Part shown: piece after piece, positions 2,037-40,845 of the stretch
How the letters are laid out: each line of letters starts with the position of its first letter
How positions within the stretch are numbered: the first letter of the stretch is position 1
Assembly: GCA_021818475.1 (NCBI GenBank)
Contig: JAKADZ010000002.1
Coordinates: forward strand, 536-64,535
Direction: 5' to 3'
Source: Nanobdellota archaeon
GTDB lineage: Archaea; Nanobdellota; Nanobdellia; Pacearchaeales; GW2011-AR1
Length of the DNA stretch: 64,000 nucleotides
Program-made: the position numbers and the translations under genes
Notes under the pieces: generated by a model
The model's input: the letters and a program-made list of their open reading frames with translations, nothing else
What the model was told of the DNA's origin: nothing
Databases searched by the model: none

Positions 2037-2532
2037 GGCTTGTATTTGATACTGCTTGTTTAGGTTTATTCCTGTTTTTTATTAGGAGATAAACAATTAA
2101 TGCAATAACAATAAAAATAATTATTCCGATAATTATCTGAAATGTTGTGCTGACAAAAAAGACTTCTTTATTTGAAGCAGTCTGAGAGGGAGAAGAGAAG
2201 TTATTCTGCTGAGTGGAAATATTATTAGAAGGAGTGGGGGAAGAGAAGTTATTCTGTATTTCAGAAGACGGAATGTTTTCCTGAGTAGGCGGAACAGACT
2301 GATTAGAAATATTTGAAGGAGAATTTAATGGAGGTGAAGGAATTGTTGTTGTAGGGTTAGAACAATCCTGCGGACAGGTTGATGCAGTTTCCCCTGGCTC
2401 ACAAATACCGTCGCCGCACATATTTTGAGTAGTCTGATTAAATGAACCCGCATCAAGACTTGATACTAATGGAGTTATAATTAAGAATATTAAAATTATT
2501 AATTCAATTGGGATTATTTTTATTTTTTTCAT
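2023..2532 (-). CDS. secreted S/T/P-rich protein with C-terminal membrane anchor
   Basis: N-terminal signal peptide, CGDGICEPGETASTCPQDC motif, low-complexity PSPT region, terminal TM helix; its start overlaps the stop of the upstream pilin-like gene. Confidence 0.6.
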   Translation of the reverse strand: MKKIKIIPIELIILIFLIITPLVSSLDAGSFNQTTQNMCGDGICEPGETASTCPQDCSNPTTTIPSPPLNSPSNISNQSVPPTQENIPSSEIQNNFSSPTPSNNISTQQNNFSSPSQTASNKEVFFVSTTFQIIIGIIIFIVIALIVYLLIKNRNKPKQAVSNTSPIQQ

Positions 2533-3689
2533 CTTATATATAAAATAACATTTGCTCTTTCATCATAAGTTTGACATGCACAACAGTGAGATGAAGACGG
2601 ACCTGCTTCACACCAACTATACCAAGCCCCATAAGACCCGCATGATTCACCGTGGCCATAATAGTTCTGATTAGACCACCCCCCATCTGGAGAAGAACAT
2701 CCTGAAGAACCCGTTGTTAAAATAGACCCCCATCCATCATTATAATTATACTTAACATAAAAAGTTTTTCCTGCATTAACATTATCATTCCCCCACTGAT
2801 TTGGATCCGATAAAAGATTATAAATATAAACATCAACAGGGTTTAGAGAATTATACCTGTATTGCTGTGTCCAGTGTCCTCTTGTTATTTTATCTCCGGA
2901 ATTTAAAATTGATTTTATAATTGAATCAGATAATTTAACTGTCGTTGCAGAGTTTGGGTCCAATACCGTTCCCACAGCATTAACATTCCAGCAATTGGAA
3001 GATGGAACTGCACCATTAAAAGAAGGATAATTTGGATTGTTTTCGGGACGGCATACTGCAGCTAAAGTCCATCCGCCCCCATCAGTAGTCATATCACAAT
3101 AAACCTGCATCAGATTATTTCCGTCAGGATTAATCCAGTAAATACCGTCTCCGCGTGAAGCACTCAAAAAACTTTTACAGGAAGTTCCGGGACTTGATTG
3201 GCTGTTAAGAGCATCAGAATTAGCTTTATAAAGGTCATAAGAATCAACTACATTTCCTGTTGTCTCCTGACCGTTTGAGGTAGCAATAGGAGCAATTGAA
3301 ATAGTTTTTATTCCAAATGGACCAAGGTCAGAATAAGGGATTGTAAATGTCTGAGTTCCGAGTTCCTGCAGCGAGGAGGGTTCTTTTATTACCTTGGAAT
3401 TTGTCCCGTCAGAAACAATAAAATTAATTGAGGTTAAATCTCCCTGCCCGGAATTTCGTTGAACTGTAACAGCAACATCCCCGTTAGGTTCAAGATTAAC
3501 ATTCTGCAATTTAAGACTGATGAACATTTGCCCAAATGAAGAACTTGCCTGCTGAGTTCCTGATTTTAGAATATTTGAAACAACAACCCAGACAACTCCG
3601 ATAGCGACGAGAGAAAGAACAATTATTATCAATGTAACAACAATGTCAGAAAGACCTTTTTTATTTCTCAGTTCTCCCCTTTTTTTCAT
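2529..3689 (-). CDS. pilin-like (class III signal peptide) surface protein with fibrinogen-related-like C-terminal domain
   Basis: KKGLSDIVVTLIIIVLSLVAIGVVWVV prepilin-type N-terminus; GIYWINPDG...VYCDMTTDGGGWT matches the fibrinogen C-domain hallmark. Confidence 0.7.
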   Translation of the reverse strand: MKKRGELRNKKGLSDIVVTLIIIVLSLVAIGVVWVVVSNILKSGTQQASSSFGQMFISLKLQNVNLEPNGDVAVTVQRNSGQGDLTSINFIVSDGTNSKVIKEPSSLQELGTQTFTIPYSDLGPFGIKTISIAPIATSNGQETTGNVVDSYDLYKANSDALNSQSSPGTSCKSFLSASRGDGIYWINPDGNNLMQVYCDMTTDGGGWTLAAVCRPENNPNYPSFNGAVPSSNCWNVNAVGTVLDPNSATTVKLSDSIIKSILNSGDKITRGHWTQQYRYNSLNPVDVYIYNLLSDPNQWGNDNVNAGKTFYVKYNYNDGWGSILTTGSSGCSSPDGGWSNQNYYGHGESCGSYGAWYSWCEAGPSSSHCCACQTYDERANVILYIR

Positions 3690-4196: not shown

Positions 4197-4277
4197 TTGC
4201 ATTTGCGGGGTCGGGAGCAGAGCGATTTCACGAATGCTTGAAAATTTTTAAATGCAATGAGTGGAGTCGGGAGCAGA
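4166..4277 (+). repeat. two tandem copies of repeat module (gatttcRcgaatgc...aaatttaRntgca...gtcgggagcag)
   Basis: Copy a 4166-4220 and copy b 4220-4277; related to 13150-13210, 18490-18560 and 37430-37490. Confidence 0.7.
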
Positions 4278-6277: not shown

Positions 6278-6341
6278 TGATTTCCCGAATAGAAAACCTT
6301 TCCCCATGGGTGGGCGGGTGGGAACTAGGAGGTGTCGTCGC
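6278..6341 (+). repeat. mosaic repeat copy with G4 core gggtgggcgggtggg (6308-6322) and junction motif ggaggtgtcgtcgc abutting the pheT ATG
   Basis: cgaatagaaaa...tttcccc...GGGTGGGCGGGTGGG consensus shared with other spacers. Confidence 0.75.
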
Positions 6342-8000
6342 ATGGCTAATGTAACATTTCCGACAAAACAATTTGAAAAAGAAATAGGGAAACTAGATGA
6401 GAAAATGCAAAACAAGATTGCAATGTTCGGAACTCCCTTGGAAAAATTTGATGATAATGAAATAGAAATCGAAGTTTTCCCGAATCGTCCTGACCTGCTT
6501 TCATATCACGGATTCAAGAGAAGTTTCCTTGCATTCTTAGAGAAAAAAACAGGATTAAAAGAGTACAAACTTAACAAACCGGAAAAGGATTTTGTGGTTA
6601 ATATAGACTCATCGGTAAAAGAGGTTCGTCCGTATACAGTTTGTGCAATTGTTAAAGGATTAAAATTTGACGATGATAAAATAAAAGAGTTAATAGACAT
6701 TCAGGAAAAACTGCATTTCACAATCGGAAGGAGAAGAAAAAAATTAGCTATAGGAATTTATCCTCTTGAAAAAATAAAACTTCCAATAACTTTCAAAGCG
6801 CTTGAACCAGATAAAATTAAATTTATCCCGCTTGAGATGGATCGGGAAATGACAGGGTTGCAAATTTTGCAAAAACATCCTACAGGGAGGGAATATGCGC
6901 ATCTTCTTGCAGGAAAAGCAAGATTTCCTATATTTATTGATGCAGAAGAAAAAATACTGAGTATGCCTCCAATCATTAATTCACATTTAACAGGAAAAGT
7001 AACAAATGACACAAAAGAAGTTTTCATCGAATGTTCGGGTTTTGATTTAAATGCGTTAAATAAATGTCTTAATATCATAACCACAAATCTTTCCGAAATG
7101 GGAGGGGAAATTTTCCAGATGGAAATTCGGGAGCATAAAAATAAAAAGATTACCCCTAATTTCACTCCGGATAAAATGAAGATTAGTATTGAAAATGCAA
7201 ATTCTCTTTTGGGGGTAAATCTGAAAGAGAAAGATATCGAAAAATTTTTGACCAAAATGGGATACAACTACAAAAAAGGGGTTGTTGAAGTTGCACCTTG
7301 GAGAACAGATGTCCTTCACGAAGTAGATTTAATAGAAGACATTGCAATTGCATATGGCTATGAAAATTTTATTCCTGAAATTCCCAAGATAACCTCAATA
7401 GGAAAAGAAGACAAAGAATGGATAGTAAAAAGAAAAATTGCGGAGATATTGACAGGATTAAACATTCTGGAAGTTTCAAATTATCATCTAACTTCAAAAA
7501 ATGACCAGTTTAAAAAAATGTCTTTACCGGAAGAAAAATTTATTGAAGTTGAAGAATCAAAAACAGATTATACTATTTTAAGGAAAGACCTAACTCATTA
7601 TTTGCTGAAAATTTTATCAGAGAATGTTGATTCAGAATATCCTCAGAGAATTTTTGAATCCGGAAAAATTTTCAGAGGGTTGGGCAGGCAGGACGAGATA
7701 GGCTCTGACTTGGCTGAAACAGAGAATCTCGCTCTTGCAATTGCTCCTGCAAATTTCACAGAAGTCAGGCAAATATTAGAATATCTTTTCAGAATGCTGA
7801 ATTTGGAAATAAAAATTTCAGAGCCGGAAAAAGCTCCTGGATACCTTATAGAAGGAAGAGTTGCAGAAGTTAAATTAGATGGTAAGCCAATTGGATTTTT
7901 GGGAGAAGTTCATCCAAGAATTTTGAGAAACTGGAAAATAAAAATGCCTGTATCAATCTTTGAAATCAACTTAGAAAATATATTTGAAAAACTAAGTTGA
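6342..8000 (+). CDS. pheT: phenylalanyl-tRNA synthetase beta subunit (archaeal type)
   Basis: Length and MANVTFPTKQF...FPNRPDLLS N-terminus typical of archaeal PheT; follows pheS; the upstream 12 codons of the ORF are repeat-encoded. Confidence 0.9.
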   Translation: MANVTFPTKQFEKEIGKLDEKMQNKIAMFGTPLEKFDDNEIEIEVFPNRPDLLSYHGFKRSFLAFLEKKTGLKEYKLNKPEKDFVVNIDSSVKEVRPYTVCAIVKGLKFDDDKIKELIDIQEKLHFTIGRRRKKLAIGIYPLEKIKLPITFKALEPDKIKFIPLEMDREMTGLQILQKHPTGREYAHLLAGKARFPIFIDAEEKILSMPPIINSHLTGKVTNDTKEVFIECSGFDLNALNKCLNIITTNLSEMGGEIFQMEIREHKNKKITPNFTPDKMKISIENANSLLGVNLKEKDIEKFLTKMGYNYKKGVVEVAPWRTDVLHEVDLIEDIAIAYGYENFIPEIPKITSIGKEDKEWIVKRKIAEILTGLNILEVSNYHLTSKNDQFKKMSLPEEKFIEVEESKTDYTILRKDLTHYLLKILSENVDSEYPQRIFESGKIFRGLGRQDEIGSDLAETENLALAIAPANFTEVRQILEYLFRMLNLEIKISEPEKAPGYLIEGRVAEVKLDGKPIGFLGEVHPRILRNWKIKMPVSIFEINLENIFEKLS

Positions 8001-10050: not shown

Positions 10051-12357
10051 TTATTGAATGGGAAGGGTAAAATAAAAAGTAGTATTTCCCTTAAATTTAC
10101 TCTCTGCCCAAATTTTTCCCCCATGCATCTCAATTATTGTTTTCGAAATATTCAGGCCTAATCCTGTCCCTTTCTTTTTTGTCTCAACTTCTCCAATCTG
10201 CGAAAAGGGTTTGAACAATTTTTCCATATCTTTCTTTTTAATTCCTATTCCATTGTCAGTTACCCGGACAAGAATATTTTTACCTTCTGCTTTTGTACTA
10301 ACTGTCACCCATGGATTATTTGAATTATTAAATTTGATGGCATTATCAATGAGATTGATTAAAACCTGATTAATTTTTTCTGCATCCATTTTTAATTTCG
10401 GCACTTTTCTCAAATTTAATTTTATGTCTACCTTATTTCCCTCCGCTAATGGCTTCATTACTTCGACGCTGTCCCGAATGATTTTATTAATATCTTCCTC
10501 CCGTTTAATTAAAGCCATATTCTGTTTCATCCTGCTCAGATTTAAAATTTGTTCAAGAAGTTGGTTTAATCTTTTTATATTTCTTGAAATAATCCCCAAA
10601 CTTTCCACTTGTCTTTGATTAAGTTTCCCGAGATCTCCCCGCTGAAGACTGTCTGCCTGTATTAAAATTGGAGTGATAGGGGTCTTAATCTCATGAGCAG
10701 TGAGATTTATGAAATCAGATTTCATTTTGTCGAGAGTCTCTAATTGCTTGTAAGAAAATTTAAGCTTCTTTACACTTTCTTCAAGTTCAGATTTGTTGTG
10801 CATTAATTCTTCAGTTCTTATTTTAACTTTTTCTTCTAGCTGCTCCTGATACATCTTCTTTTCGGTTATATCGTGGATTATTATCAAATCTGCATATTTT
10901 CCGCTGTAATTTATTTTTCTCGCATTTAATTCCGCAAATATTTTTTTATTCCCCCTGCCAACAAGGATAGTTTCATATTTTGACGGAACATTCTCTCCCC
11001 TCAATCTTTTTCTATAATTTAAAATTAATTCGGGAATTTTCTCTGGAGAGACAAACTGCATAAAAGATTTACCAATAATTTTTTTCAAATCTAACCCGCT
11101 CATTTTTTCAATTGCATGATTTGCATATTTGATTCTGGTATCCTGGACGATAATAATCCCGTCATTCGCTTTTTCTGAAACAGTCTTGTATTTTTCCTCA
11201 CTTTCTTTTAATTTGTCCTCTGCTCTTTTTCTTCTGTTTATATCTTCCGTATGAACCACAAAATATGCTACCTTTCCGTTTAGGTCTTTCACCACCGCGA
11301 TGCTTAATGCAACCCAGATTATTTCTCCATTTTTATGGATATATCTTTTTTCCAAATATCCATAATCTTTTTTTCCAGAAAGTAAATCCATTGTAAGATT
11401 TTTTGTCTTTTCAACATCCTCGGGATATGTTATCTGAAGGTATGCTTTTGTAAGCAGTTCTTCCTCAGAATACCCGGTAATCCTGCACAATGCTTTATTT
11501 ACCTGAAGCCATTTTCCATCAAGTGCAACCAAAGAAGTTCCTATACCGGAAAATTCGAAAATTTTTCTGAATCTCTCCTCGCTTTCTCTTAATCTGTCTT
11601 CTGTTTCTTTTCTTTTATTTATATTTTCAATGCGGAATAAAAAGTATTTGGGTTTATTATTCGAATCCTTTATCATTGCAATGTTTAGTGCAACCCATAT
11701 TACTCTTCTGTCCTTTGAAACAAATTTCTCTTCAAATGATTCATAATCTTCTTTCCCGGATAAAATTTTTAGAATTGCCTTTTTTGTTTGTTCAGTCTCT
11801 TCTGGAAAGATTAACTGATTGTATGTCTTTTTCAGAAGTTCTTTTTCTGAATATCCCATCATCCTGCACAGGGCTTTATTTACCTGCAAAAATTTTCCGT
11901 CCATTTTTACTATGGCAATTCCCAAAACTGAATGTTCGAAAATTTTTCTGAATCTCTCCTCGCTTTCTCTTAATTTTTCTTCTGCTTCTCTGTCTGCAGT
12001 GATATTTCTAATTCTGCACTGGACTAATTTTTTATAATCTACAGAGTAAACATTTCCTGTCAATTCTACTTCAATTTTCTCCCCGCTTTTTGTCTTTGCA
12101 GATAAACTTTTATAATGAACTTCTTTTTTGGCTTTTAGTTCTCTGAATATTTTTTCGCATCTTTCTTTTTCCCCAAAAAATTTTACATCCCACGGTTTTC
12201 TGCCAATCAAACCCTCCTTTTTATAACCTAAAATTTTAGTTACTGCAGGATTAACATTTTCTATCACACCGGTTTCATAATTTAATAAAAGAATTCCATC
12301 TTGAAAAGTTTCAAACAGTTTTTCAAATCTTAATTTATACTCCTCTTTTTCTTCCAC
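10051..12357 (-). CDS. cytoplasmic sensor histidine kinase with four PAS domains
   Basis: Four PAS-like repeats, H-box LTAHEIKTP, N-box NLIDNAIKF, G1 DNGIGI, G2 GTGLGL; no TM segment. Confidence 0.9.
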   Translation of the reverse strand: MEEKEEYKLRFEKLFETFQDGILLLNYETGVIENVNPAVTKILGYKKEGLIGRKPWDVKFFGEKERCEKIFRELKAKKEVHYKSLSAKTKSGEKIEVELTGNVYSVDYKKLVQCRIRNITADREAEEKLRESEERFRKIFEHSVLGIAIVKMDGKFLQVNKALCRMMGYSEKELLKKTYNQLIFPEETEQTKKAILKILSGKEDYESFEEKFVSKDRRVIWVALNIAMIKDSNNKPKYFLFRIENINKRKETEDRLRESEERFRKIFEFSGIGTSLVALDGKWLQVNKALCRITGYSEEELLTKAYLQITYPEDVEKTKNLTMDLLSGKKDYGYLEKRYIHKNGEIIWVALSIAVVKDLNGKVAYFVVHTEDINRRKRAEDKLKESEEKYKTVSEKANDGIIIVQDTRIKYANHAIEKMSGLDLKKIIGKSFMQFVSPEKIPELILNYRKRLRGENVPSKYETILVGRGNKKIFAELNARKINYSGKYADLIIIHDITEKKMYQEQLEEKVKIRTEELMHNKSELEESVKKLKFSYKQLETLDKMKSDFINLTAHEIKTPITPILIQADSLQRGDLGKLNQRQVESLGIISRNIKRLNQLLEQILNLSRMKQNMALIKREEDINKIIRDSVEVMKPLAEGNKVDIKLNLRKVPKLKMDAEKINQVLINLIDNAIKFNNSNNPWVTVSTKAEGKNILVRVTDNGIGIKKKDMEKLFKPFSQIGEVETKKKGTGLGLNISKTIIEMHGGKIWAESKFKGNTTFYFTLPIQ

Positions 12358-12394
12358 CTTTAATTAATAATAGAACTAACAATTTAAATTTTTC

Positions 12395-12423
12395 TTAAGC
12401 CTGTGCTGAGGATTGGGCCTCAC
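12395..12423 (-). pseudogene. displaced partial copy of the tRNA-Thr 3' end (T-arm-like hairpin plus acceptor strand)
   Basis: ttaagcctgtgctgaggattg is identical to 12486-12506, 91 bp away. Confidence 0.7.
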
Positions 12424-12488
12424 GTTTGCTCGACCTCATTCGTCTAAAAGCCAAATGAAACCACGTTCAATGTTCAATCCTTAATTTT

Positions 12489-12596
12489 AAGCCTGTGCTG
12501 AGGATTGAACTCAGGACCCCCACATTTTTGTATGATTTAAGCAGTAATATAAATTCAATACCAATGTGGTACTCTAACCAACTGAGCTACACAGGC
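12489..12596 (-). tRNA. tRNA-Thr(GGU) with 34-nt intron at 37/38
   Basis: Hand-folded: acceptor GCCTGTG/CACAGGC, D arm GCTC/GAGT, anticodon stem CCACA/TGTGG, loop TTGGTAA, T arm CTGAG-TTCAATC-CTCAG; intron 12525-12558. Confidence 0.75.
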
Positions 12597-12968
12597 GTAT
12601 TTATCAAATGTAGCGAAGGTATTTTAGTTTTTCTACCATTATAGTTTCTCTTTTCTAAAAAGAAACCTATGAGCTACACAGGTGTATTTATTAAAATGTA
12701 GCGAAGGTATTTTAGTTTTTCTACCATTATAGTTTCTCTTTTCTAAAAAGAAACCTATGAGCTACACAGGTGTATTTATCAAATGTAGCGAAGGTATTTT
12801 AGTTTTTCTACCATTATAGTTTCTCTTTTCTAAAAAGAAACCTATGAGCTACACAGGTGTATTTATTAAAATGTAGCGAAGGTATTTTAGTTTTTCTACC
12901 ATTATAGTTTCTCTTTTCTAAAAAGAAACCTATGAGCTACACAGGTGTATTTATTAAAATGTAGCGAA
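12584..12968. repeat. tandem array, 4.4 copies of 87/88 bp: tRNA-Thr nt 1-14 plus about 73 nt of its upstream region
   Basis: Units start at 12584, 12671, 12759, 12846 and 12934. The 87/88-bp variants alternate (tatttatcaaatg vs tatttattaaaatg), giving a 175-bp higher-order period. Confidence 0.95.
12620..12633 (-). promoter_or_regulatory. candidate BRE/TATA (GAAAAAC TAAAATA) at -37 to -24 of tRNA-Thr
   Basis: A/T-rich box at the distance expected for archaeal promoters; repeated in every unit of the upstream array. Confidence 0.35.
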
Positions 12969-13006
12969 TAAATACATTTTAAGCATTTCTACTCTTCTTT
13001 TTTCTA

Positions 13007-13250
13007 AGAAACCAGCTGTTCAAAGAACACAACTTCAATCTTTCTTTTCCCTGTTTCTACCACTGTAGGTTCTTTTTTCAAAGAACCCCATTTTCTACCA
13101 TTATAGTTTCTTTCATTTGGCTCTAACGAATGAAAGTGAACGCGAGAGTTTTCACGAGTGCCGGAAAAAAATTTAACAGCAACAAGTGAGGGCTCGAGGA
13201 AAGTGAACTTTTGTTAAAAGAAACCAGCTGTTCAAAGAACACAACTTCAA
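13007..13250. repeat. perfect 32-nt direct repeat pair (13007-13038 and 13219-13250)
   Basis: agaaaccagctgttcaaagaacacaacttcaa occurs twice, 212 bp apart, flanking hairpin-box and mosaic-repeat modules. Confidence 0.9.
13096..13210 (+). repeat. mosaic repeat copy (tttcatttggctctaacgaatgaaagtgaac + gagagttttcacgagtgccggaaaaaaatttaa)
   Basis: Near-identical to 37428-37470; its left part is an inverted match to 12428-12462. Confidence 0.7.
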
Positions 13251-13287
13251 GTTTTCTACCATTATAGTTTCTTTTGTTAAAAGAAAC

Positions 13288-13569
13288 CTATTTCTTAACT
13301 TTTTTTAAAATCCATAGAACAAGAAGTGCAATTAAAAGAGCAATCGCAACAAATCCGAATGCTATTGTCATAATATAAAAAGTGTTGCTTAAAATGCCGA
13401 GATTAGGCAAAAATCTATACAAAACCAGAAACACCAAAGATAAAGCTACAAAAAGTAATAAATTCTTTACAACCAAAGATGTTTTATTTTTTAAACCATT
13501 AGATTGTGGAGCAGTTCTTCTTGCTCTTCTTACTTTTCTAACTTGTTTCGTCCTCTTTTTTTTTGCCAT
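13288..13569 (-). CDS. small membrane protein with K/R-rich N-terminus (93 aa)
   Basis: Basic N-terminus followed by two hydrophobic helices. Confidence 0.5.
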   Translation of the reverse strand: MAKKKRTKQVRKVRRARRTAPQSNGLKNKTSLVVKNLLLFVALSLVFLVLYRFLPNLGILSNTFYIMTIAFGFVAIALLIALLVLWILKKVKK

Positions 13570-13604
13570 TTATATTATATATTATAAAATATAGTTTATA
13601 AAGA

Positions 13605-13904
13605 TTATCCTGTCTGATTACCTTTCCAGTTCATATGAATTGCATTTGTAGTCAAAATTTTCATATTGTTGAATACAAATCCCAACCAGTTAAAATATAT
13701 TTTAGCTACATTCTCAACATCAGAAATTGAATTTATCGTTATATCCTTCCCCTTGAAAACTTCATTAAAGCTGAAAAAACCAAAGAGAAGAAGTGCAATC
13801 AGGAAAAGGGAAAAAAATTTATGTTTTACTCTTTTTATCTCAAAGATAAAATAAATTGCAATAACTAAAACAATTATTATAAGAAGGGTAATCCCAATAG
13901 CCAT
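13605..13904 (-). CDS. small membrane protein (99 aa)
   Basis: Two predicted TM helices; in the same orientation as the neighbouring gene. Confidence 0.5.
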   Translation of the reverse strand: MAIGITLLIIIVLVIAIYFIFEIKRVKHKFFSLFLIALLLFGFFSFNEVFKGKDITINSISDVENVAKIYFNWLGFVFNNMKILTTNAIHMNWKGNQTG

Positions 13905-13996
13905 GAATAATTAAACAAAAAGATATATAAAAATATTTCTGATGCCCAAGATGATTTTAATCATCGCGCGTCTGACGGTTTCTACAGAGATTTGTT

Positions 13997-14100
13997 TGCA
14001 AATTAAGATGCCCCTCTGCCGAACTCGGGTCGCCACTCATTACAATTATATTTTTTCCGGCACTCGTGAAAACTCTCGGATTTGAATCGGGTTCCCCTCG
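13997..14100 (-). pseudogene. degenerate fragments of the tRNA-Glu 3' half, interleaved with an inverted mosaic-repeat module
   Basis: 14008-14037 and 14078-14097 resemble 14111-14145; 14055-14078 is the reverse complement of cgagagttttcacgagtgccggaa. Confidence 0.55.
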
Positions 14101-14111
14101 TTCAAATAATA

Positions 14112-14305
14112 TGCCCCTGCCGAGATTTGAACTCGGGTCGCCACCGTACTCTAACGAGAGATTGCATTGAGATGCATAGATCTCTCACTCTCATCGAGCT
14201 TAGATCACCTCTCATTAATCGTTTTGAGATCGGATTTTAAATCCTCACTCAATCCACTTTCGCGTTTTGAGAGGGTGGTATCCTTGGCCTCTAGACTACA
14301 GGGGC
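14112..14305 (-). tRNA. tRNA-Glu(CUC) with 121-nt intron at 37/38
   Basis: Exon 1 GCCCCTGTAGTCTAGAGGCCAAGGATACCACCCTCTCA (D arm like the E. coli tRNA-Glu I recall); exon 2 C-GGTGG-CGAC-CCGAG-TTCAAAT-CTCGG-CAGGGGC-A; intron 14147-14267. Confidence 0.7.
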
Positions 14306-14465
14306 ATTTTCTATGCCAATGGAGTATTCAGCAAAATCTTCCTGATTTTAGCCTAGACTATAAAGGCATTTCTTATATCGATATAATTTTATAGACTCTT
14401 AATTTAAAAGAGTTTGCTTCAGCATTCGTAAACTTTTAAAAGTGCAGCAATCCTCTATTTTACAT

Positions 14466-14582
14466 AGCCCCATAGTACAGCGGTCAAGTATATCGGCCTC
14501 TGGAGCTCACGAGAGAGTCGTTCACTCTCTCCGTATAGAACAGAGAGAGCCGGTGACCCAGGTTCGAATCCTGGTGGGGCTA
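14466..14582 (+). tRNA. tRNA-Gln(CUG) with 44-nt intron at 37/38
   Basis: AGCCCCA acceptor, D arm GTAC/GTAT, anticodon stem TCGGC/GCCGG, T arm CCAGG-TTCGAAT-CCTGG; intron 14504-14547. Confidence 0.75.
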
Positions 14583-14651
14583 TGAATAAAAAAGGATGAG
14601 AACCATTGGGTTTTGTTCGGAAAATTTACGAACAAGAAGGAACGAAGTGAA

Positions 14652-14669
14652 CTCCGAATCTGGGGGCTA
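14652..14669 (+). pseudogene. displaced degenerate copy of the tRNA-Gln 3' end
   Basis: ctccgaatctgggggcta resembles ttcgaatcctggtggggcta, which ends 87 bp upstream. Confidence 0.55.
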
Positions 14670-14677
14670 TATATTTA

Positions 14678-15190
14678 ATGGAAAATGAATCAACCATGAG
14701 CACAAATTCAGTAGGAAGATCAAGCGAACGAAACCGGGGGTGTCGTCGCATATCTAAAGAGACTATAGATTTTAATAAGGAACTGTTATTTGGAGAAATA
14801 GGAGCTTTAATAGGAATTCAGTTTGTTGATTTTATCTCCTTATTTTTCTCAATTTCAATAAGTTTAATTCCTCATTTGATAATTCTAGGGGCAATAATCG
14901 GAGGCTCATTATTCTGGATTTCTGCAAGAATTTATTACAAGTCAAAAGAAGGAAATTACTCGGAAAAAAAACTTATAACAGATGTTGAATATTTCGCCCC
15001 TGCTTCAGCAATTTTAACTTTTACTTTTTATTATCCCGCATTATTTTTTTCAACAAAATATTTTCTGATTCATCACAGGCATCTGGAATTCTCCAGCATA
15101 GTTTCGCAGACAATTGCCTTTCTTTTATTTGTGATAGCAATCAACATTTACAGATACGTGCTGTTCAAAGTATTCAGAAAAAAAATATGA
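14678..15190 (+). CDS. membrane protein (170 aa as tracked; true start uncertain)
   Basis: Four hydrophobic helices. The first about 27 codons run through repeat sequence ending in gtgtcgtcgcATA. Confidence 0.5.
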   Translation: MENESTMSTNSVGRSSERNRGCRRISKETIDFNKELLFGEIGALIGIQFVDFISLFFSISISLIPHLIILGAIIGGSLFWISARIYYKSKEGNYSEKKLITDVEYFAPASAILTFTFYYPALFFSTKYFLIHHRHLEFSSIVSQTIAFLLFVIAINIYRYVLFKVFRKKI

Positions 15191-15729: not shown

Positions 15730-16782
15730 ATGAATAAAAAGAGGATTCTGCTTCTTAATGTTGGAAGTTCAACTGTCAAATACAGCCTTTTTGAAAATTC
15801 AATTCTGGTAGTATCTGGAACTTATGAAAAACTTGTAACAAAAAATGATTATGAAAATTCTATAAAAAAAATTTTTGAGGAGATAAAAGAAATAGATATA
15901 ATTGCACACAGAATAGTTCACGGCGGAGAATTAAATTATACAGTAAAAATAAATAATGAAGTAAAGGGAAAAATAAAAAAATCTTCAGAGCTCGCTCCTC
16001 TTCATAATCCTCTTGAATTAATGGTAGTGGAATTTTGTGAAAAATACAAAAAACCACAGTATGCCGTTTTTGATACAATGTTTTTTTCTGAAATTCCGGA
16101 AGTAGCAAAGATTTATCCTCTGCCCAAAGAGATAACCAAAAAATATCATATAAGAAGATACGGATTTCACGGATTGTCTCATAAATATGTTTCAAGAAAT
16201 TTAAAAGGAAAAACAATAACCTGCCACCTTGGTTCAGGTTCAAGTATTTCGGCAATTGTAAACGGAAAACCAATTGATACAAGCATGGGATTTACGCCGT
16301 TGGAAGGAATTATGATGGGAACCCGCTCAGGAACAATCGACCCGGGAATAATTTTCTTCCTTGAAAAAAAAGGATACAATATAAGTGAAATATTAACCAA
16401 CAAATCAGGATTAAAAGGAATATCCGGATACAATGATTTCCGGGACATATTATCAAATATGAATAAAGACAAAAATTGCAGACTTGCTTATGAAATATTT
16501 GCATATGAAATAATCAAGACAATAGGTTCTTACGTCGCAGCCATGAACGGGTTAGACAATCTTATTTTCACCGGAGCAATAGGGGAAAATGTTCCAAAAC
16601 TAAGAGAAGATGTTTGTAATAACTTTTCTCATTTAAGGATGAAATTAGACCAAGAAAGAAATAAAAAAAATTCAGAATTAATCTCTGCGAAGAATTCTGC
16701 AGTAAAAGTTTTTGTCAGAAAGACAAATGAAGAAGAAATAATGATTGAAGAAGTTTTAAAAATTTTAAAATACAATAAATAA
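15730..16782 (+). CDS. ackA: acetate/propionate kinase (compact, 350 aa)
   Basis: LLLNVGSSTVKYSLF, HRIVHGG, LAPLHNP, RRYGFHGLSH, MGTRSGTIDPG. Confidence 0.8.
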   Translation: MNKKRILLLNVGSSTVKYSLFENSILVVSGTYEKLVTKNDYENSIKKIFEEIKEIDIIAHRIVHGGELNYTVKINNEVKGKIKKSSELAPLHNPLELMVVEFCEKYKKPQYAVFDTMFFSEIPEVAKIYPLPKEITKKYHIRRYGFHGLSHKYVSRNLKGKTITCHLGSGSSISAIVNGKPIDTSMGFTPLEGIMMGTRSGTIDPGIIFFLEKKGYNISEILTNKSGLKGISGYNDFRDILSNMNKDKNCRLAYEIFAYEIIKTIGSYVAAMNGLDNLIFTGAIGENVPKLREDVCNNFSHLRMKLDQERNKKNSELISAKNSAVKVFVRKTNEEEIMIEEVLKILKYNK

Positions 16783-16835
16783 CATGAAAAAAGTCTCAAT
16801 CAAATATTCCATGAATACAAATTTTTTCCATTCGG

Positions 16836-16925
16836 AGAAGCGAGAGTTTTCACGATTAGAAAATAATTCCCCTTTGGGTGGGAGGGCGGGAATAACGAGG
16901 AAAACTCGAGGCGGGGATAAATAAT
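16836..16925 (+). repeat. mosaic repeat copy with G4 core gggtgggagggcggg (16876-16890), ending at the pduL ATG
   Basis: gagagttttcacgattagaaaa...cccctttGGGTGGGAGGGCGGGaataacgag. Confidence 0.75.
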
Positions 16926-17489
16926 ATGAAAATTTTAACAGAAGTTTCAGCGAGGCATATTCATTTATCAGAAAAAGATTTTGAAAAACTTTTTGGTAAA
17001 GAAAAATTAAATCCCCTGAAGCAGCTTTCTCAACCTGGAGAATTCGCTTCTGATAAAACAGTGGAGCTGATTAATGGAAATAAAAAAATAATGAATGCGA
17101 GGATTCTTGGTCCATTTAGGGAAAATTCACAGGCAGAAATTGCACTGACTGATGCTTATTTATTAAAGCTAAAACCATTGCCAAAAATAAAAGTTTCTGG
17201 AGATTTAGCAGACACAACAAAAATTGAAGTAAGAAGCAAAAAAGCAAAAATAAAAATTCCGTGCATAATCGCACAGAGGCATATTCACATTTCAAAAGAA
17301 GAAGCAAAAAAAATGAAATTAAAAAACAATCAGAGAGTTTCAGTTAAAGTCAAAGGGTTAAGAGAAATTACATTTCATAATATAGTTGTAAGAGTTGATG
17401 AACATTATCGGCTTTCCCTGCATTTAGATACAGACGAGGGAAATGCAGCAGGAATTTTTGGAAAGACATTTGGAGAGTTAGTTAAATAA
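16926..17489 (+). CDS. pduL: PduL-type phosphate acyltransferase
   Basis: Two PduL repeats: SARHIHLSEKDFEKLFG...QPGEFA...ILGPFR and AQRHIHISKEEA. Confidence 0.8.
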   Translation: MKILTEVSARHIHLSEKDFEKLFGKEKLNPLKQLSQPGEFASDKTVELINGNKKIMNARILGPFRENSQAEIALTDAYLLKLKPLPKIKVSGDLADTTKIEVRSKKAKIKIPCIIAQRHIHISKEEAKKMKLKNNQRVSVKVKGLREITFHNIVVRVDEHYRLSLHLDTDEGNAAGIFGKTFGELVK

Positions 17490-17540
17490 AGATTTTTCTA
17501 ATATATTTTTCTCTTTAAAAAAATATTTTCCCAAATAAAA

Positions 17541-17665
17541 AATCTTCCTCTAGGGGGGAGGGACTAGAGGGTAACAATTTCGCGAATAGAAAACTTTCCC
17601 CTTTGGGCGGGCGGGAATAAGTGAAAGAAATTGCGAATTATGAAAATCGAGGCGGAAGGAGTTAA
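17541..17665 (+). repeat. mosaic repeat copy (ggggggagggactagaggg; atttcgcgaatagaaaa...gggcgggcggg)
   Basis: Shared boxes with the other copies. Confidence 0.7.
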
Positions 17666-17710
17666 GCAAAATCACAAATTTAAAAATAGATAATTCTTTG
17701 TAAAAATAAG

Positions 17711-18364
17711 ATGCAACAAAAAAATATAGTGCAAATTATGGAAACCCTTAAACAAGTTTATCCAACTCACACAAAAACAACATTGAATCGAATGAGAGAC
17801 AAACCTGATGCATTCAGAATTTTAATTTCTTGTCTTCTCTCTTTAAGAACGCAGGATAAAAATACAGAAATTGCTTCAAATAATTTATTTGCAGTTGCAG
17901 ATACTCCTGAAGAAATTTTAAAACTTCCTGTGAAAAAATTGGAAAAACTAATTTTCTCATCGGGGCATTATAAAAAAAAGGCGAGAACATTAAAACATGT
18001 TTCTGAAATTATCTTAAAAGATTATAATGGAAAAGTTCCCGACAGAAGAGAAGAACTTGAAAGCATTAAGGGAATCGGCCCGAAAACTGCAAATATAGTT
18101 TTGGCTTTTGCATTCGGGAAAAATGTTCTGCCGATAGACACTCATTGCCATAGAATTCCAAATCGGCTGGGATGGGTAAAAACCAAAACTCCTGTCCAGA
18201 CAGAAATTGAATTGGGAAAAATCCTTCCTGAAAAATACTGGGCAGACTTTAATGCAATTTTCGTCCAGTTTGGAAAAACAATCTGCGTTCCGATTTCTCC
18301 AAAATGTTCTGAATGTCCGATAAGTCAATATTGCCCAAAAATCGGCGTAACAAGAAGAAGATAA
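17711..18364 (+). CDS. nth: endonuclease III
   Basis: HhH-GPD motif IKGIGPKTANIVL and the C-terminal 4Fe-4S Cys cluster CVPISPKCSECPISQYC. Confidence 0.9.
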   Translation: MQQKNIVQIMETLKQVYPTHTKTTLNRMRDKPDAFRILISCLLSLRTQDKNTEIASNNLFAVADTPEEILKLPVKKLEKLIFSSGHYKKKARTLKHVSEIILKDYNGKVPDRREELESIKGIGPKTANIVLAFAFGKNVLPIDTHCHRIPNRLGWVKTKTPVQTEIELGKILPEKYWADFNAIFVQFGKTICVPISPKCSECPISQYCPKIGVTRRR

Positions 18365-18424
18365 AAAAATCAAAAATTCTTTAATAACTTTTATCCCATC
18401 TTTTTTCAAGATTATATCTATCAA

Positions 18425-18625
18425 TAAAAATATGTGAACAAACGAGTGAAATTTTTCCCCATTAACTTTTTTCCTTGGCGAAGAAATCTGGCAGAGCCCG
18501 AGCATTTGCACGAATGCGAGAAAAAATTAAATGCAATGAGTGCGGGTGCGAGTTATTTCGGAGCAATTCATCTCAAAATTTTCTCTGAAAATTTTGCACT
18601 TTTTCCTCTTGAAGAGAAAAATTAA
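18425..18625 (+). repeat. mosaic repeat copy (gtgaaatttttccccattaac module, aaattaaatgcaatgag module, A/T hairpin 18574-18596)
   Basis: Collinear with 27530-27660 apart from an about 60-nt insert. Confidence 0.7.
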
Positions 18626-18706
18626 AACTGGAGAGAAGATAATTCTGAATAACTTAATAGTAGTTACAACCATAAACTATTTAAATTAAAATATTCAGCT
18701 AATTCT

Positions 18707-20224: not shown

Positions 20225-20509
20225 ATGATTGAATATTGTTATGATACTTTAAATCCTCAATCAATTGATTTTACCAGAGCAGCAGAAATATATCATGAGT
20301 TAATGCTCGGAGATTTGGCAGAATTGATGAGAAAAGAAGAAGGATTGAAAACATATAAAAAAAGAGTTAATGATATCAAAGTTTCAAAATCAGTTTTGGA
20401 AAAAATAATAAAACAGGAAGAAATTTCTGAAGAGGAAGCTAAAACATTATCTGATTTTTTCAGTGATTTATCGAAGAGGTGTAAAGAGATTCTTGACGGA
20501 AAGCAATAA
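20225..20509 (+). CDS. hypothetical protein (94 aa)
   Basis: Clean ORF upstream of rfcS. Confidence 0.45.
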   Translation: MIEYCYDTLNPQSIDFTRAAEIYHELMLGDLAELMRKEEGLKTYKKRVNDIKVSKSVLEKIIKQEEISEEEAKTLSDFFSDLSKRCKEILDGKQ

Positions 20510-20560
20510 AACCTTTTTTATCACAATAATATTTATAAGTTAAAATTTAATTCTCTTAAT

Positions 20561-21523
20561 ATGAGCAGCGGAATATGGACAGAGAGGTACCGCCCAATAA
20601 AATTCTCGGAAATTGTCGGGCAGGATAATTCGGTAAAAAGAGTTGAAGCGTTAACAAATTCTATGAATATACCCCATATGCTTTTTGCAGGGCCAGCAGG
20701 AACAGGAAAATCAACTCTTGCATTGATAGTTGTAAAAGAATTATATGGAGAAAATTGGAAGGAGAATTATCTGGAATTAAATGCTTCTGATGAAAGAGGA
20801 ATAAATGTAGTGAGGGAAAAAGTAAAAAATTTCGCAAGAACAAAATCTCTCGGCAACATTCCGTTCAAAATAATATTTCTCGATGAAGCTGATGCGTTAA
20901 CTCCCGAGGCTCAGCAGGCACTAAGAAGAACTATGGAAAATTATTCAACAACCTGCAGATTTATCTTATCATGCAACTATTCAAGCAAAATTATTGACCC
21001 CATTCAGTCACGTTGCGCAATTTTCAAATTTAAATTGCTTGAAAAAAAAGATATTGAAAAAGTAATTGCGAAAATTGCTGAGAAAGAAAATCTCGTGGTA
21101 AAACCCGAAGCAGTCGAAGTTTTATATGAAGGATGCGAGGGAGATTGCAGAAAATGCATAAATATAATGCAGTCAACAGCGTCGATTTCTCCTCTTATAA
21201 CTTCCGAATTAGTTGCAACAATAATCTCAAATACCAAACCAAGGGACATAAAAATTGTTTTGGATTATGCACTTTCAGGAGATTTCCAGAAATCAAAAGA
21301 AAAACTTCTCGATATAATGTTAAGGGAAAGTATTTCAGGTCAGGATGTAATCAAAGCAATTCAGAAAGAAATCTGGAATCTTCCCGTAGAACCTACAATA
21401 AAAGTAAAATTAACAGAAAAAACCGGCGAGATTGAATTCAGGATAATTGAAGGAAGCGATCCTTTTATTCAGCTTCAGTCATTGCTGGCAAGTTTTGTTC
21501 TTGCAGGATTAGGAAGAGAATAA
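20561..21523 (+). CDS. rfcS: replication factor C small subunit
   Basis: WTERYRP, Walker A GPAGTGKST, Walker B FLDEADAL, SRC motif QSRCAIF. Confidence 0.9.
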   Translation: MSSGIWTERYRPIKFSEIVGQDNSVKRVEALTNSMNIPHMLFAGPAGTGKSTLALIVVKELYGENWKENYLELNASDERGINVVREKVKNFARTKSLGNIPFKIIFLDEADALTPEAQQALRRTMENYSTTCRFILSCNYSSKIIDPIQSRCAIFKFKLLEKKDIEKVIAKIAEKENLVVKPEAVEVLYEGCEGDCRKCINIMQSTASISPLITSELVATIISNTKPRDIKIVLDYALSGDFQKSKEKLLDIMLRESISGQDVIKAIQKEIWNLPVEPTIKVKLTEKTGEIEFRIIEGSDPFIQLQSLLASFVLAGLGRE

Positions 21524-21702
21524 TGGAAAAAACATGTTTAAGCAGACTTTTTGGAAGATGTAAAAATTGCCAGAGAGATTATGAGCCAATAACTCCTGCA
21601 CATCCGGTTAATAATTACAGTTGCAGAGACTATTATGAGGTTCATTTTGGGAAATGTGAAGTAATTGATGAATCTCAAAAATATGAAATAAAAAAAGATT
21701 AA
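21523..21702 (+). CDS. small Cys-containing protein (59 aa, below the ORF-track cutoff)
   Basis: taATG overlap with the rfcS stop; CxxC (CKNC) plus two further Cys. Confidence 0.3.
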   Translation: MEKTCLSRLFGRCKNCQRDYEPITPAHPVNNYSCRDYYEVHFGKCEVIDESQKYEIKKD

Positions 21703-21764
21703 AAGAGGAATAAAAAATGATAATTATCCTTGAAGAAAATTTTATTGAGAATATAAAACAAAAA

Positions 21765-21935
21765 ATTTCACGAATAGAATTATTTTTCCCCTTGGGTAGG
21801 CGAGCGATTTCGCAAGGACAAATTTCGGTGGTGGAGGGGTGGATGGCGGAGGATAAAAAATCGAGCGAAGTCGCTAGTTGGGCAGGAATAGATGAGCGAA
21901 ATTTTTTAGGAAAAGGAGATTCAATTTAAAATGAT
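21765..21935 (+). repeat. mosaic repeat copy (atttcacgaatagaa...ccccttgggtaggcgagcgatttcgc...G-rich run)
   Basis: Shared boxes; the 70-aa ORF across it is judged spurious. Confidence 0.7.
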
Positions 21936-21978
21936 AATCAGCCTTGAGCACTATTTTAGTGGGAAATTCAAAACATAC

Positions 21979-22019
21979 ATCGGAGGTATTAGGAACCTTT
22001 GGTTCTTAGTGTAGTCGCA
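21979..22019 (+). repeat. 41-nt hairpin-containing junction element ending in gtgtagtcgca, directly abutting the rfcL ATG
   Basis: Reverse complement of 60249-60289 with 1 mismatch. Confidence 0.85.
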
Positions 22020-23189
22020 ATGATGTGGGTTGAGAAATATCGTCCTAAAAATATAAATGAAATAAAGGGGCAGGATGAAGCAGTTTCTAAGGTAAAGGAA
22101 TTTATAAAAAATTTTGGAAAGGGTAAAAATGCAATAATTTTATATGGTACCCCTGGAACAGGAAAAACAAGTCTGGCATATGCAATAGCAAACGAAGTTG
22201 ATTCAGAAATTTTTGAATTAAATGCTTCAGATTTAAGGAATAAAGAAAGATTAAAAGAAGTATTAAAACCGGCAATAGAGCAAAAGTCTTTGAAGAAAGA
22301 GAATAAAATAGTTTTAGTTGATGAAGTAGACGGAATTTCCGATGAAGATTATGGGGGGCTTCCGCAACTTTTGGAAATAATTGACTCTTCTCCGACGCCG
22401 ATGATAATCACAGCAAATGATATATGGGGAAAGAAGTTTAATACTTTAAGAAAAAAATGCGAAGTTGTTCAGTTAAAGGAAATTAATTATAACAATATAA
22501 AACTAATCCTGCAGAATATCTCTGAAAAAGAAGGAATGAATCTGGATGGCGATTTGTTGACAGAGATTGCAATTAAAGCCAAAGGAGATTTGAGAGCAGC
22601 TATAAATGATTTGCAGACATTATATCAGATGAAAAGTTTTGTCCCGATAATTATAGATGAAAGAAATAAAGAAACAGATATTTTTAACTCATTAAGGAGA
22701 ATATTCAAGGAAAAACCCTCTGAAGAATTGCTGAACATTTTTGATTCAGTAAATATGCCGATAGATGAAATTTTTCTCTGGATGGAAGAAAACATTCCTG
22801 CGGAGTATAAAGGAGAAGAGCTTGCAAGAGCATATGAATTATTGGCAAGAGCGGATATATTCAAGGGAAGAATTTACAAGCAGCAATACTGGAGATTTTT
22901 AGTTTATGAAAACATTTTTCTCAGTTATGGAATTGCCTCGTCAAAAAAAAATCCAAAAGTAGGGTTTACAAGTTATAAAAAACCTGAAAGAATTTTGCAG
23001 ATATGGCTGAATAATCAAAAAACTGCACACAAAAAAACAATCTGCGAGAAATATGCCCAATATGTTCATATAAGCCAGAAACGCGCAATGACAGAATTTC
23101 CCGTGATAAAACAGATTCTGAAATCAAATTTTCAAATTCAAAAAGAATTAAAATTAAATGAAGATGAAATAGGCTATCTGAAAAGATGA
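22020..23189 (+). CDS. rfcL: replication factor C large subunit
   Basis: MMWVEKYRP, Walker A GTPGTGKTS, Walker B LVDEVDG; start set at 22020, after the repeat element. Confidence 0.85.
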   Translation: MMWVEKYRPKNINEIKGQDEAVSKVKEFIKNFGKGKNAIILYGTPGTGKTSLAYAIANEVDSEIFELNASDLRNKERLKEVLKPAIEQKSLKKENKIVLVDEVDGISDEDYGGLPQLLEIIDSSPTPMIITANDIWGKKFNTLRKKCEVVQLKEINYNNIKLILQNISEKEGMNLDGDLLTEIAIKAKGDLRAAINDLQTLYQMKSFVPIIIDERNKETDIFNSLRRIFKEKPSEELLNIFDSVNMPIDEIFLWMEENIPAEYKGEELARAYELLARADIFKGRIYKQQYWRFLVYENIFLSYGIASSKKNPKVGFTSYKKPERILQIWLNNQKTAHKKTICEKYAQYVHISQKRAMTEFPVIKQILKSNFQIQKELKLNEDEIGYLKR

Positions 23190-23214
23190 AATTTATTTGT
23201 AGGGAATTAATTTT

Positions 23215-23330
23215 TTATAGTTTGTGAATAGAATTTTCTATAATTTATTTATGAAATAATTCAATTACTTATTTTTAAAAAAGAGGGGATAACTTTGCCC
23301 TTGGGTGGGCGGGTGGAACAGGGTTAAAAA
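23215..23330 (+). repeat. mosaic repeat copy with core gggtgggcgggtgg (23303-23316)
   Basis: tttgtgaatagaa...ctttgcccttGGGTGGGCGGGTGG, lying between convergent genes. Confidence 0.7.
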
Positions 23331-23333
23331 AAT

Positions 23334-25134: not shown

Positions 25135-25222
25135 AAGGGAAACTCGAGCGCGAGCGATTTCACGAATAGAAAATTTTTTCCATTCGGGCGGGGGGGCGGG
25201 AGTAGATTAGCGAAATTGCAAG
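25135..25222 (+). repeat. mosaic repeat copy with G4 core gggcgggggggcggg (25186-25200)
   Basis: gcgatttcacgaatagaaaa...cattcGGGCGGGGGGGCGGG; lies between two minus-strand genes. Confidence 0.75.
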
Positions 25223-40840: not shown

Positions 40841-40845
40841 AATAA

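Follow-up and report, generated by a model that had tools for sequence, protein, structure and literature searches.

Why should a genome as poor in GC as that of a Nanobdellota archaeon carry, in one intergenic spacer after another, four short guanine tracts in the arrangement expected of a G-quadruplex (G4)? We addressed this question in a 64-kb window of contig JAKADZ010000002.1 (the whole stretch of DNA analyzed; coordinates refer to it unless the locus of a relative is named), whose GC content is 31-35%. The reading we prefer, with a modest lean in its favor, is that the G cores are the conserved center of a strand-polar, non-autonomous mobile repeat, akin to the miniature transposable elements with inverted repeats known as MITEs and to repetitive extragenic palindromes (REPs), which has recently colonized the spacers. 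The host is a Pacearchaeota-like DPANN archaeon, as follows from its tRNA introns (~44 nt, in two of the four tRNA genes found at the Rfam gathering threshold in the whole window), its archaeal-type pheT, pyrH, RFC and aIF-1A genes, and the labels Pacearchaeota or Nanoarchaeia borne by RFC-L homologues. A fifth, intron-containing tRNA gene at 12490-12596 surfaced only in an E-value scan. Promoters in the window are usually TTTATAAA/TTTAAATA boxes 25-35 nt 5' of the ATG, so that mRNAs are mostly leaderless. Syntenic loci of relatives, designated by L numbers, were obtained through RFC-L and RPA homologues with 76-93% protein identity.

The excess of G cores is not an effect of composition. A canonical G4 expression (four tracts of G3+, loops of N1-7, both strands) has seven matches on the plus strand and none on the minus strand against a mean of 0.075 in shuffled sequence, while GGGNGGGNGGGNGGG with at most one mismatch is found eight times, always on the plus strand, against 0.01 expected from dinucleotide shuffles. 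The initial annotation of this DNA, which had called these cores G4-type motifs recurring beyond chance, was therefore right on both counts, since four G3 tracts match the canonical expression, and every core sequence that it listed was found in its place. Its description of the cores as intergenic applies to all except that at 34428, which lies inside the open reading frame (ORF) 34174-35199, encoding an RsmB/F-type methyltransferase, and lacks the flanking context shared by the other copies. The context cgaatagaaaa..ttcccc, said to precede each core, does precede those at 1271 (in a variant form), 6308, 16876, 17605, 25186, 43799 and 45609, whereas 23303, 37853 and 55121 retain its TTCC portion only, and the supposed related core at 58391 is at most a decayed relative, the family profile described below having no match there. 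The flanking inverted repeat, the long or nested copies at 21759-21907 and 37391-37510, and the location of the family on a single strand had all been overlooked.

When the cores are printed with their flanks, each intergenic one is seen to be the center of a repeat of 65-75 nt. An intact unit consists, from 5' to 3', of the 5' arm of a 10-bp stem (for example GCGATTTCGC, AAGTTTTCAC or CAATTTCGC), the purine box GAATAGAAA inside the stem, 3-6 nt, a T/C tract TTCC(CC), in full TTCCCC, 2-4 nt, the core GGGnGGGnGGGnGGG with its four GGG tracts spaced by 1-2 free nucleotides, the sequence AAT..GA, and a 3' arm complementary to the first. The core can also be read as a tandem 8-mer, GGGyGGGr repeated twice. 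A repeat search grouped 12 copies (families D2/D4), and an nhmmer profile built from nine copies has 14 matches in the window at E<0.01, all on the plus strand and 13 of them non-coding. Beside the intact units stand short cores without a stem (23291, 37841, 55109, 40799 and 27648), truncated copies with two (43770) or three (17575) G tracts, and long forms in which a hairpin element lies between G tracts 2 and 3 (21759-21907, 37391-37510, L048:12282-12415 and L072:18950-19050). This inner hairpin is either of a kind that we call type A (CGAGAGTTTTCACGAGTGCCGGAAAAAAATTTAAATGCAACGAG...CTCGAG; sites at 13143, 18499, 37430 and 4220 on the plus strand and 14023-14080 on the minus strand) or, at 21801-21877, a degenerate member of the family itself, with the same stem and junction. 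The canonical G4 motif is present in six intergenic copies of the window and in L048a, L056a, L056b, L078a and L074; it is missing from the truncated copies, most short cores and the long forms.

The orientation of the repeat follows the chromosome strand and not the genes. All 13 non-coding profile matches lie on the plus strand (two-sided P ~2e-4), the strand-specific orientation known from IS200/IS605 or REP-RAYT elements, and the best minus-strand match has E=0.013 in nhmmer. That match, at 28959-28993, is the sole minus-strand likeness to the 5' half of the element (CAAGAATAGAAAATCTTTCCCTTGAAG) and could represent a reverse copy that has decayed, or a chance resemblance. Six plus-strand copies lie between plus-strand genes. 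The copy at 6279-6342 (E 2.7e-15), where the 6278-6341 region reads ...gatttcccgaatagaaaacctttccccatGGGTGGGCGGGTGGGaactaggaggtgtcgtcgcATG, has the 5' arm GATTTCCC, the GAATAGAAA box, TTTCCCC and GGGTGGGCGGGTGGG, and in place of a 3' arm it carries the module GGAGGTGTCGTCGCA, a Shine-Dalgarno sequence, which ends at base 1 of the pheT start codon (ATG 6342-6344). The intact short form at 1238-1304 (stem AAGTTTTCAC/GTGAAAACTT, core GGGATGGGAGGGCGGG, fold z -4.1) sits within an older decayed copy, of which the half-unit 1201-1237 and outer arms of about CAATTTTG ... CGAAATTG were recognized by eye. An intact short form occupies the ackA-pduL spacer at 16841-16910 (E 1.3e-18), with an older half-unit ahead of it at 16809-16840, and a short form with three G tracts occupies the pduL-nth spacer at 17575-17633, behind an older half-unit at 17526-17562. 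The two long forms complete this set: that at 21759-21907 has the outer stem AAAAAATTTCAC/GCGAAATTTTTT and holds its 77-nt family member (21801-21877) in the middle of the G core, and that at 37391-37510 has a type-A inner hairpin (37430-37484) between GGGGAGG and TTGGGCGGGAAT.

The same strand is used where it faces other gene arrangements, three of the 13 non-coding matches being in convergent spacers and three having minus-strand genes on either side. In convergent spacers we find the stem-less core TTTGCCCTTGGGTGGGCGGGTGGAACAGGG at 23291-23323, between RFC-L and metK, which the profile matches; the stem-less core TTTTTCCCTCGGGGGTGGGCGGGAA at 37841-37867 (E 4.6e-4), whose minus-strand neighbor is an unannotated ORF of 71 aa (37896-38111); and an intact short form at 45577-45640 (stem GCGATTTCGC/GCGAAATCG, core GGGTGGGCGGGAGGGG, fold z -3.65). 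Flanked by minus-strand genes on both sides, and still on the plus strand, are the intact short form at 25154-25219 between GNAT and Trm5b (E 1.6e-17), the copy at 43770-43814 between aIF-1A and DUF424 (E 5.6e-13), which keeps two G tracts and has lost its 3' arm, the short core TTTTCCTCTGGGGCAGGCGGGCGGGGA at 55109-55138 between DNA ligase and desulfoferrodoxin (E 7.4e-6), the degenerate core TTCTTCCTCGGGGGGTTGGGATGAG at 40799-40826, which closes a second repeat family at its 3' end and has a counterpart at 27648-27673, and, just outside the window, the copy of L072. The plus polarity thus holds over at least 74 kb irrespective of gene direction, and one strand per contig is likewise used in L056 (four copies), L048 (two) and L078 (two to three). 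A replication-type asymmetry was sought in the third codon positions of the window, where the GC skew component is 0.000 and a weak excess of A over T (0.074) is uninformative.

The stem is maintained through compensatory changes, as judged from the aligned sequences. We took 13 copies belonging to five contigs (window, L048, L056, L072 and L078) and anchored their arms at the conserved junctions. Of the cells, 74% are paired against 66.6% in shuffles (reached in 0 of 500), and compensatory changes occur in seven of the 13 stem pairs, such as C-G becoming U-A in L078 and A-U becoming U-A at 1238. The covariation score is 0.269, compared with 0.157 for shuffled arms and 0.04-0.16 when the register is slid. 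At the outermost pairs the sequence changes from copy to copy while complementarity is kept. The element has terminal inverted repeats of the kind that marks MITEs, a 10-bp complementary end stem, but its outer pairs vary and covary, unlike those of repeats bound by a transposase. Among 10 intact copies, again belonging to five contigs (window, L048, L056, L074 and L078), all 120 tract guanines (12 per copy) are invariant, whereas the three loop positions vary freely among C, T, A and G and in length between 1 and 2 nt. Invariant tracts with variable loops are what would be expected if a G4, or at least a GGGN periodicity, is kept, and the G tracts, plausibly as a G4, matter to the element. 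ViennaRNA with its G4 term predicts a three-layer G4 in five intact copies of the window, favored by ~20-30 kcal/mol. In four of the five the flanking stem closes around it; the copy at 6279, which has no 3' arm, pairs otherwise, and copies with fewer G tracts cannot form the predicted three-layer structure. RNAalifold further proposes a helix P2 between TTCCC and GGGAA, for which there is no compensatory change. Among stem mismatches, A.C is roughly as frequent as G.U by manual reading rather than by a tool count, so nothing marks the plus strand as RNA.

Signs of mobility come from copies within copies. By manual reading, eight copies, none of them reversed relative to the others, directly follow the initial G run of an older copy, and the intact inner copies at 1238, 16841 and 17575 have the 5' half of the older copy ahead of them and its remnants behind; nesting is therefore common and occurs at a constant relative point and orientation. 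The solo type-A hairpin at 13143-13198 (+) is bounded on both sides by the perfect 10-nt direct repeat GAAAGTGAAC (null P ~0.0014), and the family member at 21801-21877 by a repeat that agrees at eight of nine positions, TTGGGTAGG / TTGGGCAGG (null P ~0.009); we take both for target-site duplications. Sister copies of the type-A hairpin lie at 18499-18552 (+), 4220-4273 (+) and 14023-14080 (-). The unlinked loci 13142, 37429 and 14051 share 28-35 nt at 100% identity, and 21799-21888 matches L072 over 90 nt at 95.6% identity; such near-identical pieces at unlinked loci point to recent duplication.

Relatives supply the corresponding empty sites. Orthologous junctions lack the element in L062, L063, L064, L069, L074 and L078. 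HIT and pheT, separated in the window by ~100 nt containing the element, overlap without a spacer in L063; the pduL-nth junction of 221 nt is 8 nt in L062, 22 nt in L074 and an overlap in L064; the GNAT-Trm5b junction of 150 nt is 39 nt in L064, and the aIF1A-DUF424 junction of 401 nt is 37-40 nt in L078 and L079. Upstream of RFC-L, the composite of ~315 nt in the window contrasts with 3 nt after a small ORF in L069, whose RFC-L is 93% identical and which has no counterpart of the 21759-21907 composite. A filled and an empty allele can be compared directly in L056 and L078, whose RPA proteins are 93% identical and which differ by ~131 nt: L078 reads ...catattttatttttct|tagcaATG between the RPA promoter and the ATG, whereas L056 has an intact element in an insert of ~131 nt ending in AGGAG directly before the RPA ATG. 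Insertion polymorphism of a small, non-coding, multi-copy sequence, as known from MITEs, is thus observed, this pair included. Density also differs: L079 and L064 have no copy in 17-21 kb, the window about one per 5 kb. Some positions are shared: L069 has the core at 23291, L076 that at 27648, L074 a copy of the 6279 type downstream of nth, and L078 and L056 have in common a short core downstream of RPA.

The spacer 23190-23333 is 98.6% identical to that of L069, against 66% at the third codon positions of RFC-L, and we had considered purifying selection on it. This was withdrawn: the identity shows no constraint, because the spacer falls within a mosaic block of ~360 nt of high identity, apparently a recombination tract. 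Along 20473-23830 the DNA identity to L069 is indeed a mosaic, with 96-100% in RFC-S, 70-90% in RFC-L, 95-100% at 23172-23531 and 65-80% beyond, which points to recent homologous recombination among related populations.

If the repeat is a mobile element as we propose, it would depend for its movement on an enzyme supplied in trans from another part of the genome, acting on one folded strand made of the stem and the G-tract core, the latter probably a parallel G4. Strict polarity, homing into the center of existing G cores, and the conservation of structure rather than of terminal sequence argue for such a single-stranded substrate, which would in turn explain both the polarity and the orientation-specific homing. 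Effects on genes would be secondary. Insertions would lengthen spacers and split gene pairs that formerly overlapped, and sense copies would become part of 5' untranslated regions (UTRs) or intercistronic RNA, several of them with a Shine-Dalgarno sequence between the element and the start codon (as at pheT, pduL and the RPA gene of L056). In this sense a G4 is plausible as the core fold of the element and not as a regulator of pyrH, pheT, pduL or nth.

Several observations weigh against a mobile repeat. Some short cores occupy the same spacer in relatives at 80-93% identity (L069, L076 and L074), and part of the family is therefore old, or a host feature. No target duplication above the null was found at 13 of the 15 copies tested, and the imperfect repeat around 21801 could simply reflect the tandem 8-mer that the host G core contains. 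Conservation is higher in the interior (box and G tracts) than at the ends, whose outer pairs covary, which is more typical of a structured RNA or a single-stranded substrate than of terminal repeats bound by a transposase. Among the genes of the window and of the Pfam-annotated loci of relatives (~130 kb of distinct sequence) there is none for a transposase, RAYT, TnpB or integrase, so the mobilizing enzyme is hypothetical. Strand polarity, finally, could stem from selection rather than from the mechanism of insertion.

Comparison with known systems places the repeat between several of them. With prokaryotic MITEs, such as Correia/NEMIS of Neisseria and those of Sulfolobus and haloarchaea, it shares a length within 55-150 nt, non-coding content, inverted-repeat ends, intergenic location, many diverged copies and fragments, nested insertions, presence or absence between relatives, and a direct repeat of 9-10 bp at two copies; its sense copies, too, are probably co-transcribed with their neighbors and may supply expression signals. 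Unlike MITEs, its copies all lie on one strand, its interior is more conserved than its ends, its arms covary, for the majority of copies no target duplication is detectable, and no parent insertion sequence or transposase was identified. The ends of IS200/IS605 elements, with their derivatives among palindrome-associated transposable elements (PATEs) and MITEs, and the REP or bacterial interspersed mosaic element (BIME) sequences mobilized by RAYT resemble it in having a hairpin and a short conserved motif as the unit, a one-strand orientation bias, high copy number in spacers, and insertion into existing repeats; families of the IS200/IS605 and REP types insert into the lagging-strand template. 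They differ in that the element has no GTAG-type tetranucleotide 5' of its palindrome (the conserved box GAATAGAAA lies inside the stem), in its one enclosing stem in place of separate left-end and right-end hairpins, in its G-tract core, which is foreign to those families, and in the direct repeats of 9-10 bp at two copies, which IS200/IS605 does not make. Neither a Y1/HUH transposase (TnpA/RAYT) gene nor a TnpB gene was found in the window and the Pfam-annotated loci of relatives. In Neisseria, the pilE sequence G3TG3TTG3TG3 is a quadruplex that initiates recombination at a single host locus of fixed position. It is similarly intergenic, with four G3 tracts and loops of 1-2 nt on one specific strand, and a recombination-promoting G4 would offer a possible copying route for the element, which is, in contrast, multi-copy, enclosed by a hairpin and variable in genomic position. 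Integron attC sites likewise act as folded single-stranded hairpins, conserve structure more than sequence and keep one orientation along the DNA, but here there is no integrase and no cassette array, and between the copies both strands carry core housekeeping genes. The likeness to IS200/IS605, REP/RAYT and attC would thus be one of function only, the defining features of GTAG, Y1 and absence of duplication being either not found or not shown.

The repeat might alternatively be a structured-RNA family, that is, small RNAs or cis-acting 5'-UTR or intercistronic modules whose stem closes a G4 or a switch between C tract and G tract, read by a protein or tuning translation, with spread of the DNA being incidental. 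We regard this as a serious rival, albeit one with a rather low probability. The covarying stem with its conserved junction box and G tracts would be expected of it, as would a variable hairpin at one permissive point in the middle of the G core, in a long form that recurs in L048 (12282-12415), and the G4-enabled fold is strongly favored in the ViennaRNA predictions. Many sense copies lie 10-40 nt before a Shine-Dalgarno sequence and ATG (pheT, pduL, L056 RPA, L048a and L078a), and the copy at 37391-37510, whose own end is a T run, lies 50-90 nt after a box found ahead of tRNA genes as well. An RNA function does not fit the five copies that are antisense to both neighbors, nor the lineage-specific presence seen in the empty spacers of close relatives. 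Neighboring genes (pyrH, pheT, pduL, nth, RFC, Trm5b, aIF-1A and ligase) are functionally unrelated, so that the consistent class of downstream gene in sense orientation that characterizes riboswitches and other cis-RNAs is not observed, and there is no consistent promoter upstream of the copies. A.C mismatches are, by manual reading, about as common as G.U, the pairing of T/C tract with G tract has no compensatory change, and Rfam 15 at the gathering threshold returned only the four tRNA genes in the whole window and no family for the element; E-value scans of 16700-17750, 40400-45800 and 12300-14700 gave no relevant match either. Scans of viral contigs and BLAST against phages and plasmids likewise yielded nothing relevant to the element.

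A different possibility is that the short core is a replication-polar DNA signal of the host, a G4 site for recombination, priming or the fork, and that the hairpin elements are parasites targeting it. The absolute polarity, independent of gene direction over at least 74 kb, is what such a signal would give; stem-less cores recur at the same spacers in 80-93% relatives (L069 and L076, with one downstream of RPA shared by L078 and L056), and hairpin elements enter G cores in a single orientation. We nevertheless consider it very unlikely, since density differs so widely among close relatives, the third-position GC skew has no replication-type asymmetry, no origin or terminus is within view, and known polar signals such as Chi or KOPS (FtsK-orienting polar sequences) are much shorter and simpler than the element. 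The idea of the initial annotation, that each core is an independent DNA or RNA quadruplex controlling the gene 30-100 nt downstream, is scarcely credible and already largely refuted by the comparative data. It had correctly placed cores upstream of pyrH, pheT, pduL and nth, where four copies indeed lie 20-94 nt before the genes, and these match the canonical G4 sequence. The cores are, however, parts of a longer repeat whose position and orientation relative to genes are not fixed and are not retained in orthologues, as those of a G4 regulatory element would be. The same genes in relatives, and mostly the same spacers, have no core, six copies face no downstream gene on their own strand, truncated and long copies do not have four G3 tracts, and nested insertions and apparent target-site duplications speak of movement. 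Promoters here are typically TTTATAAA-type boxes, and both pyrH and nth retain a TATA box of their own 3' of the element; at pheT and pduL the copy is intercistronic, with a Shine-Dalgarno sequence behind it. The annotation itself had named, as grounds for giving up regulation, a decayed mobile element with neither positional preference nor conservation in related genomes; this describes much of what is seen, with the exception of decay, the G tracts being the best-conserved part.

Other candidates were tried and rejected. CGAATAGAAAA was considered as a B recognition element and TATA box with transcription starting in the G run; real promoters are the TTTATAAA/TTTAAATA boxes 25-35 nt before the ATG, a G-rich initially melted region would be unfavorable, and no gene is faced in six spacers. 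The GA...GA junctions were read directly for a K-turn or an H/ACA or C/D small RNA (sRNA), but the strand layout is unfit for a K-turn and C/D and ACA boxes are missing, and the stem base has no bulge-helix-bulge as a tRNA-intron reading would need. A contig pattern scan returned 46 loci with one match each, in genomes that are unrelated and mostly GC-rich; all are chance matches (L018 was checked).

Should the repeat be mobile as we propose, a striking G4 excess in an AT-rich genome could come from one proliferating repeat and not from many regulators. Among small prokaryotic repeats it would be unusual in that its best-conserved part is a four-tract G core, in its gene-independent strand polarity, and in its reinsertion into the center of its own G core. 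It could serve as a natural system for asking whether archaeal G4s form and are read in vivo, and could show how tiny DPANN genomes poor in insertion sequences gain and tolerate mobile DNA, with leaderless or overlapping genes becoming leadered. A bolder and doubtful proposal is that the hairpin-enclosed G4 is the recognition structure of an undescribed single-strand, orientation-specific integration system of DPANN archaea that homes into its own G core, or else that the repeat represents a new, abundant class of structured RNA containing a G4. Under both proposals the invariant GGG tracts and their free loops would offer, for the first time from nature and across a whole family, a comparative signature of a G4 being the fold selected for in an archaeal mobile or structured element. 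As far as we could find, a G-tract-cored, hairpin-enclosed, strand-polar and self-nesting element has no earlier description. Very high densities of MITEs have been reported in some DPANN genomes (PMC11602168), and a MITE-rich DPANN genome is therefore not new in kind.

The window contains further repeats. A second composite family of ~200-350 nt, again entirely on the plus strand (18365-18706, 27485-27700, 33920-34173, 40600-40845, 43560-43770 and 58440-58640, with L072 12700-12892), combines an AAATTTTTCCyCATTAAC module, optional hairpins, the palindrome CAAAAATTTCTGAAAGAAATTTTTG and a G-core-like tail TTTTCC...GGG; it is often preceded by TTATCACCTCTTTTTT and occupies most of the long spacers in the window. 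Downstream of FEN1, at 27680-27803, a 62-nt unit (AACCGATTAGGTGTTCGTCATCAGCCATGAGCAG...) forms a tandem duplicate of 94% identity, and related pieces occur near 58600-58700 and in L072 at 12640-12700. At 12583-13020 (and 13053-13282) an 88-nt unit is repeated four times in tandem at 96-100% identity; it comprises the upstream region and the 5' end of the neighboring tRNA gene, which has an intron (12490-12596, -). The array is followed by more diverged copies of the unit's 31-nt box, TTTTCTACCATTATAGTTTC..., and the assembly at 12583-13282 differs between samples (L066 and the window).

A two-hairpin box, GGGTTyCTTTGAGrAGAAAGAnnCTACAATGGTAGAAAT, occurs at 42461-42499 (-), at 37300-37345 (+), in seven copies within 12629-13282, and in L056 at ~2225-2265. 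It stands ~35 nt upstream of tRNA-Asn and of the tRNA at 12.5 kb, directly after the stop of the M24 peptidase gene, 50-90 nt before the long form at 37391, and after the RPA gene of L056; its possible roles include those of a promoter-upstream element and a terminator. A 48-nt sequence at 21972-22019 (+) recurs inverted at 60249-60296 (-) with 94% identity, ending in one case one base before the 5' end of tRNA-Gly and in the other directly before the RFC-L start codon. Its core is GGAGGT, an optional hairpin ATTAGGAACCTTTGGTTCTTAG, and GTGTCGTCGCA, and the motif GGAGGT..GTGTCGTCGCA is also found at 6328-6342, where it ends on the first base of the pheT start codon, and at 14736-14750, within the 5' portion of ORF 14678-15190; it resembles a portable Shine-Dalgarno or leader module.

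Among the genes, a probable tRNA at ~14100-14306 (-), with the acceptor GCCCCTG...CAGGGGCA and an intron of ~125 nt, was recognized by manual reading and missed by ARAGORN and Rfam; a degenerate copy of its 3' half at 14009-14100 (-) holds the sole minus-strand type-A hairpin (14023-14080). Inverted paralogous Laminin_G_3 genes lie 59 kb apart at 2529-3689 (-) and 62359-63465 (+), with stretches of 124-128 nt that are 73-84% identical, and 48886-50874 (-) encodes a protein of 662 aa with a C-terminal Hint/pretoxin-HINT domain. The MCM protein of the window (729 aa) is free of inteins, whereas that of L079 (4959-9836, 1625 aa) carries two inteins with LAGLIDADG domains.

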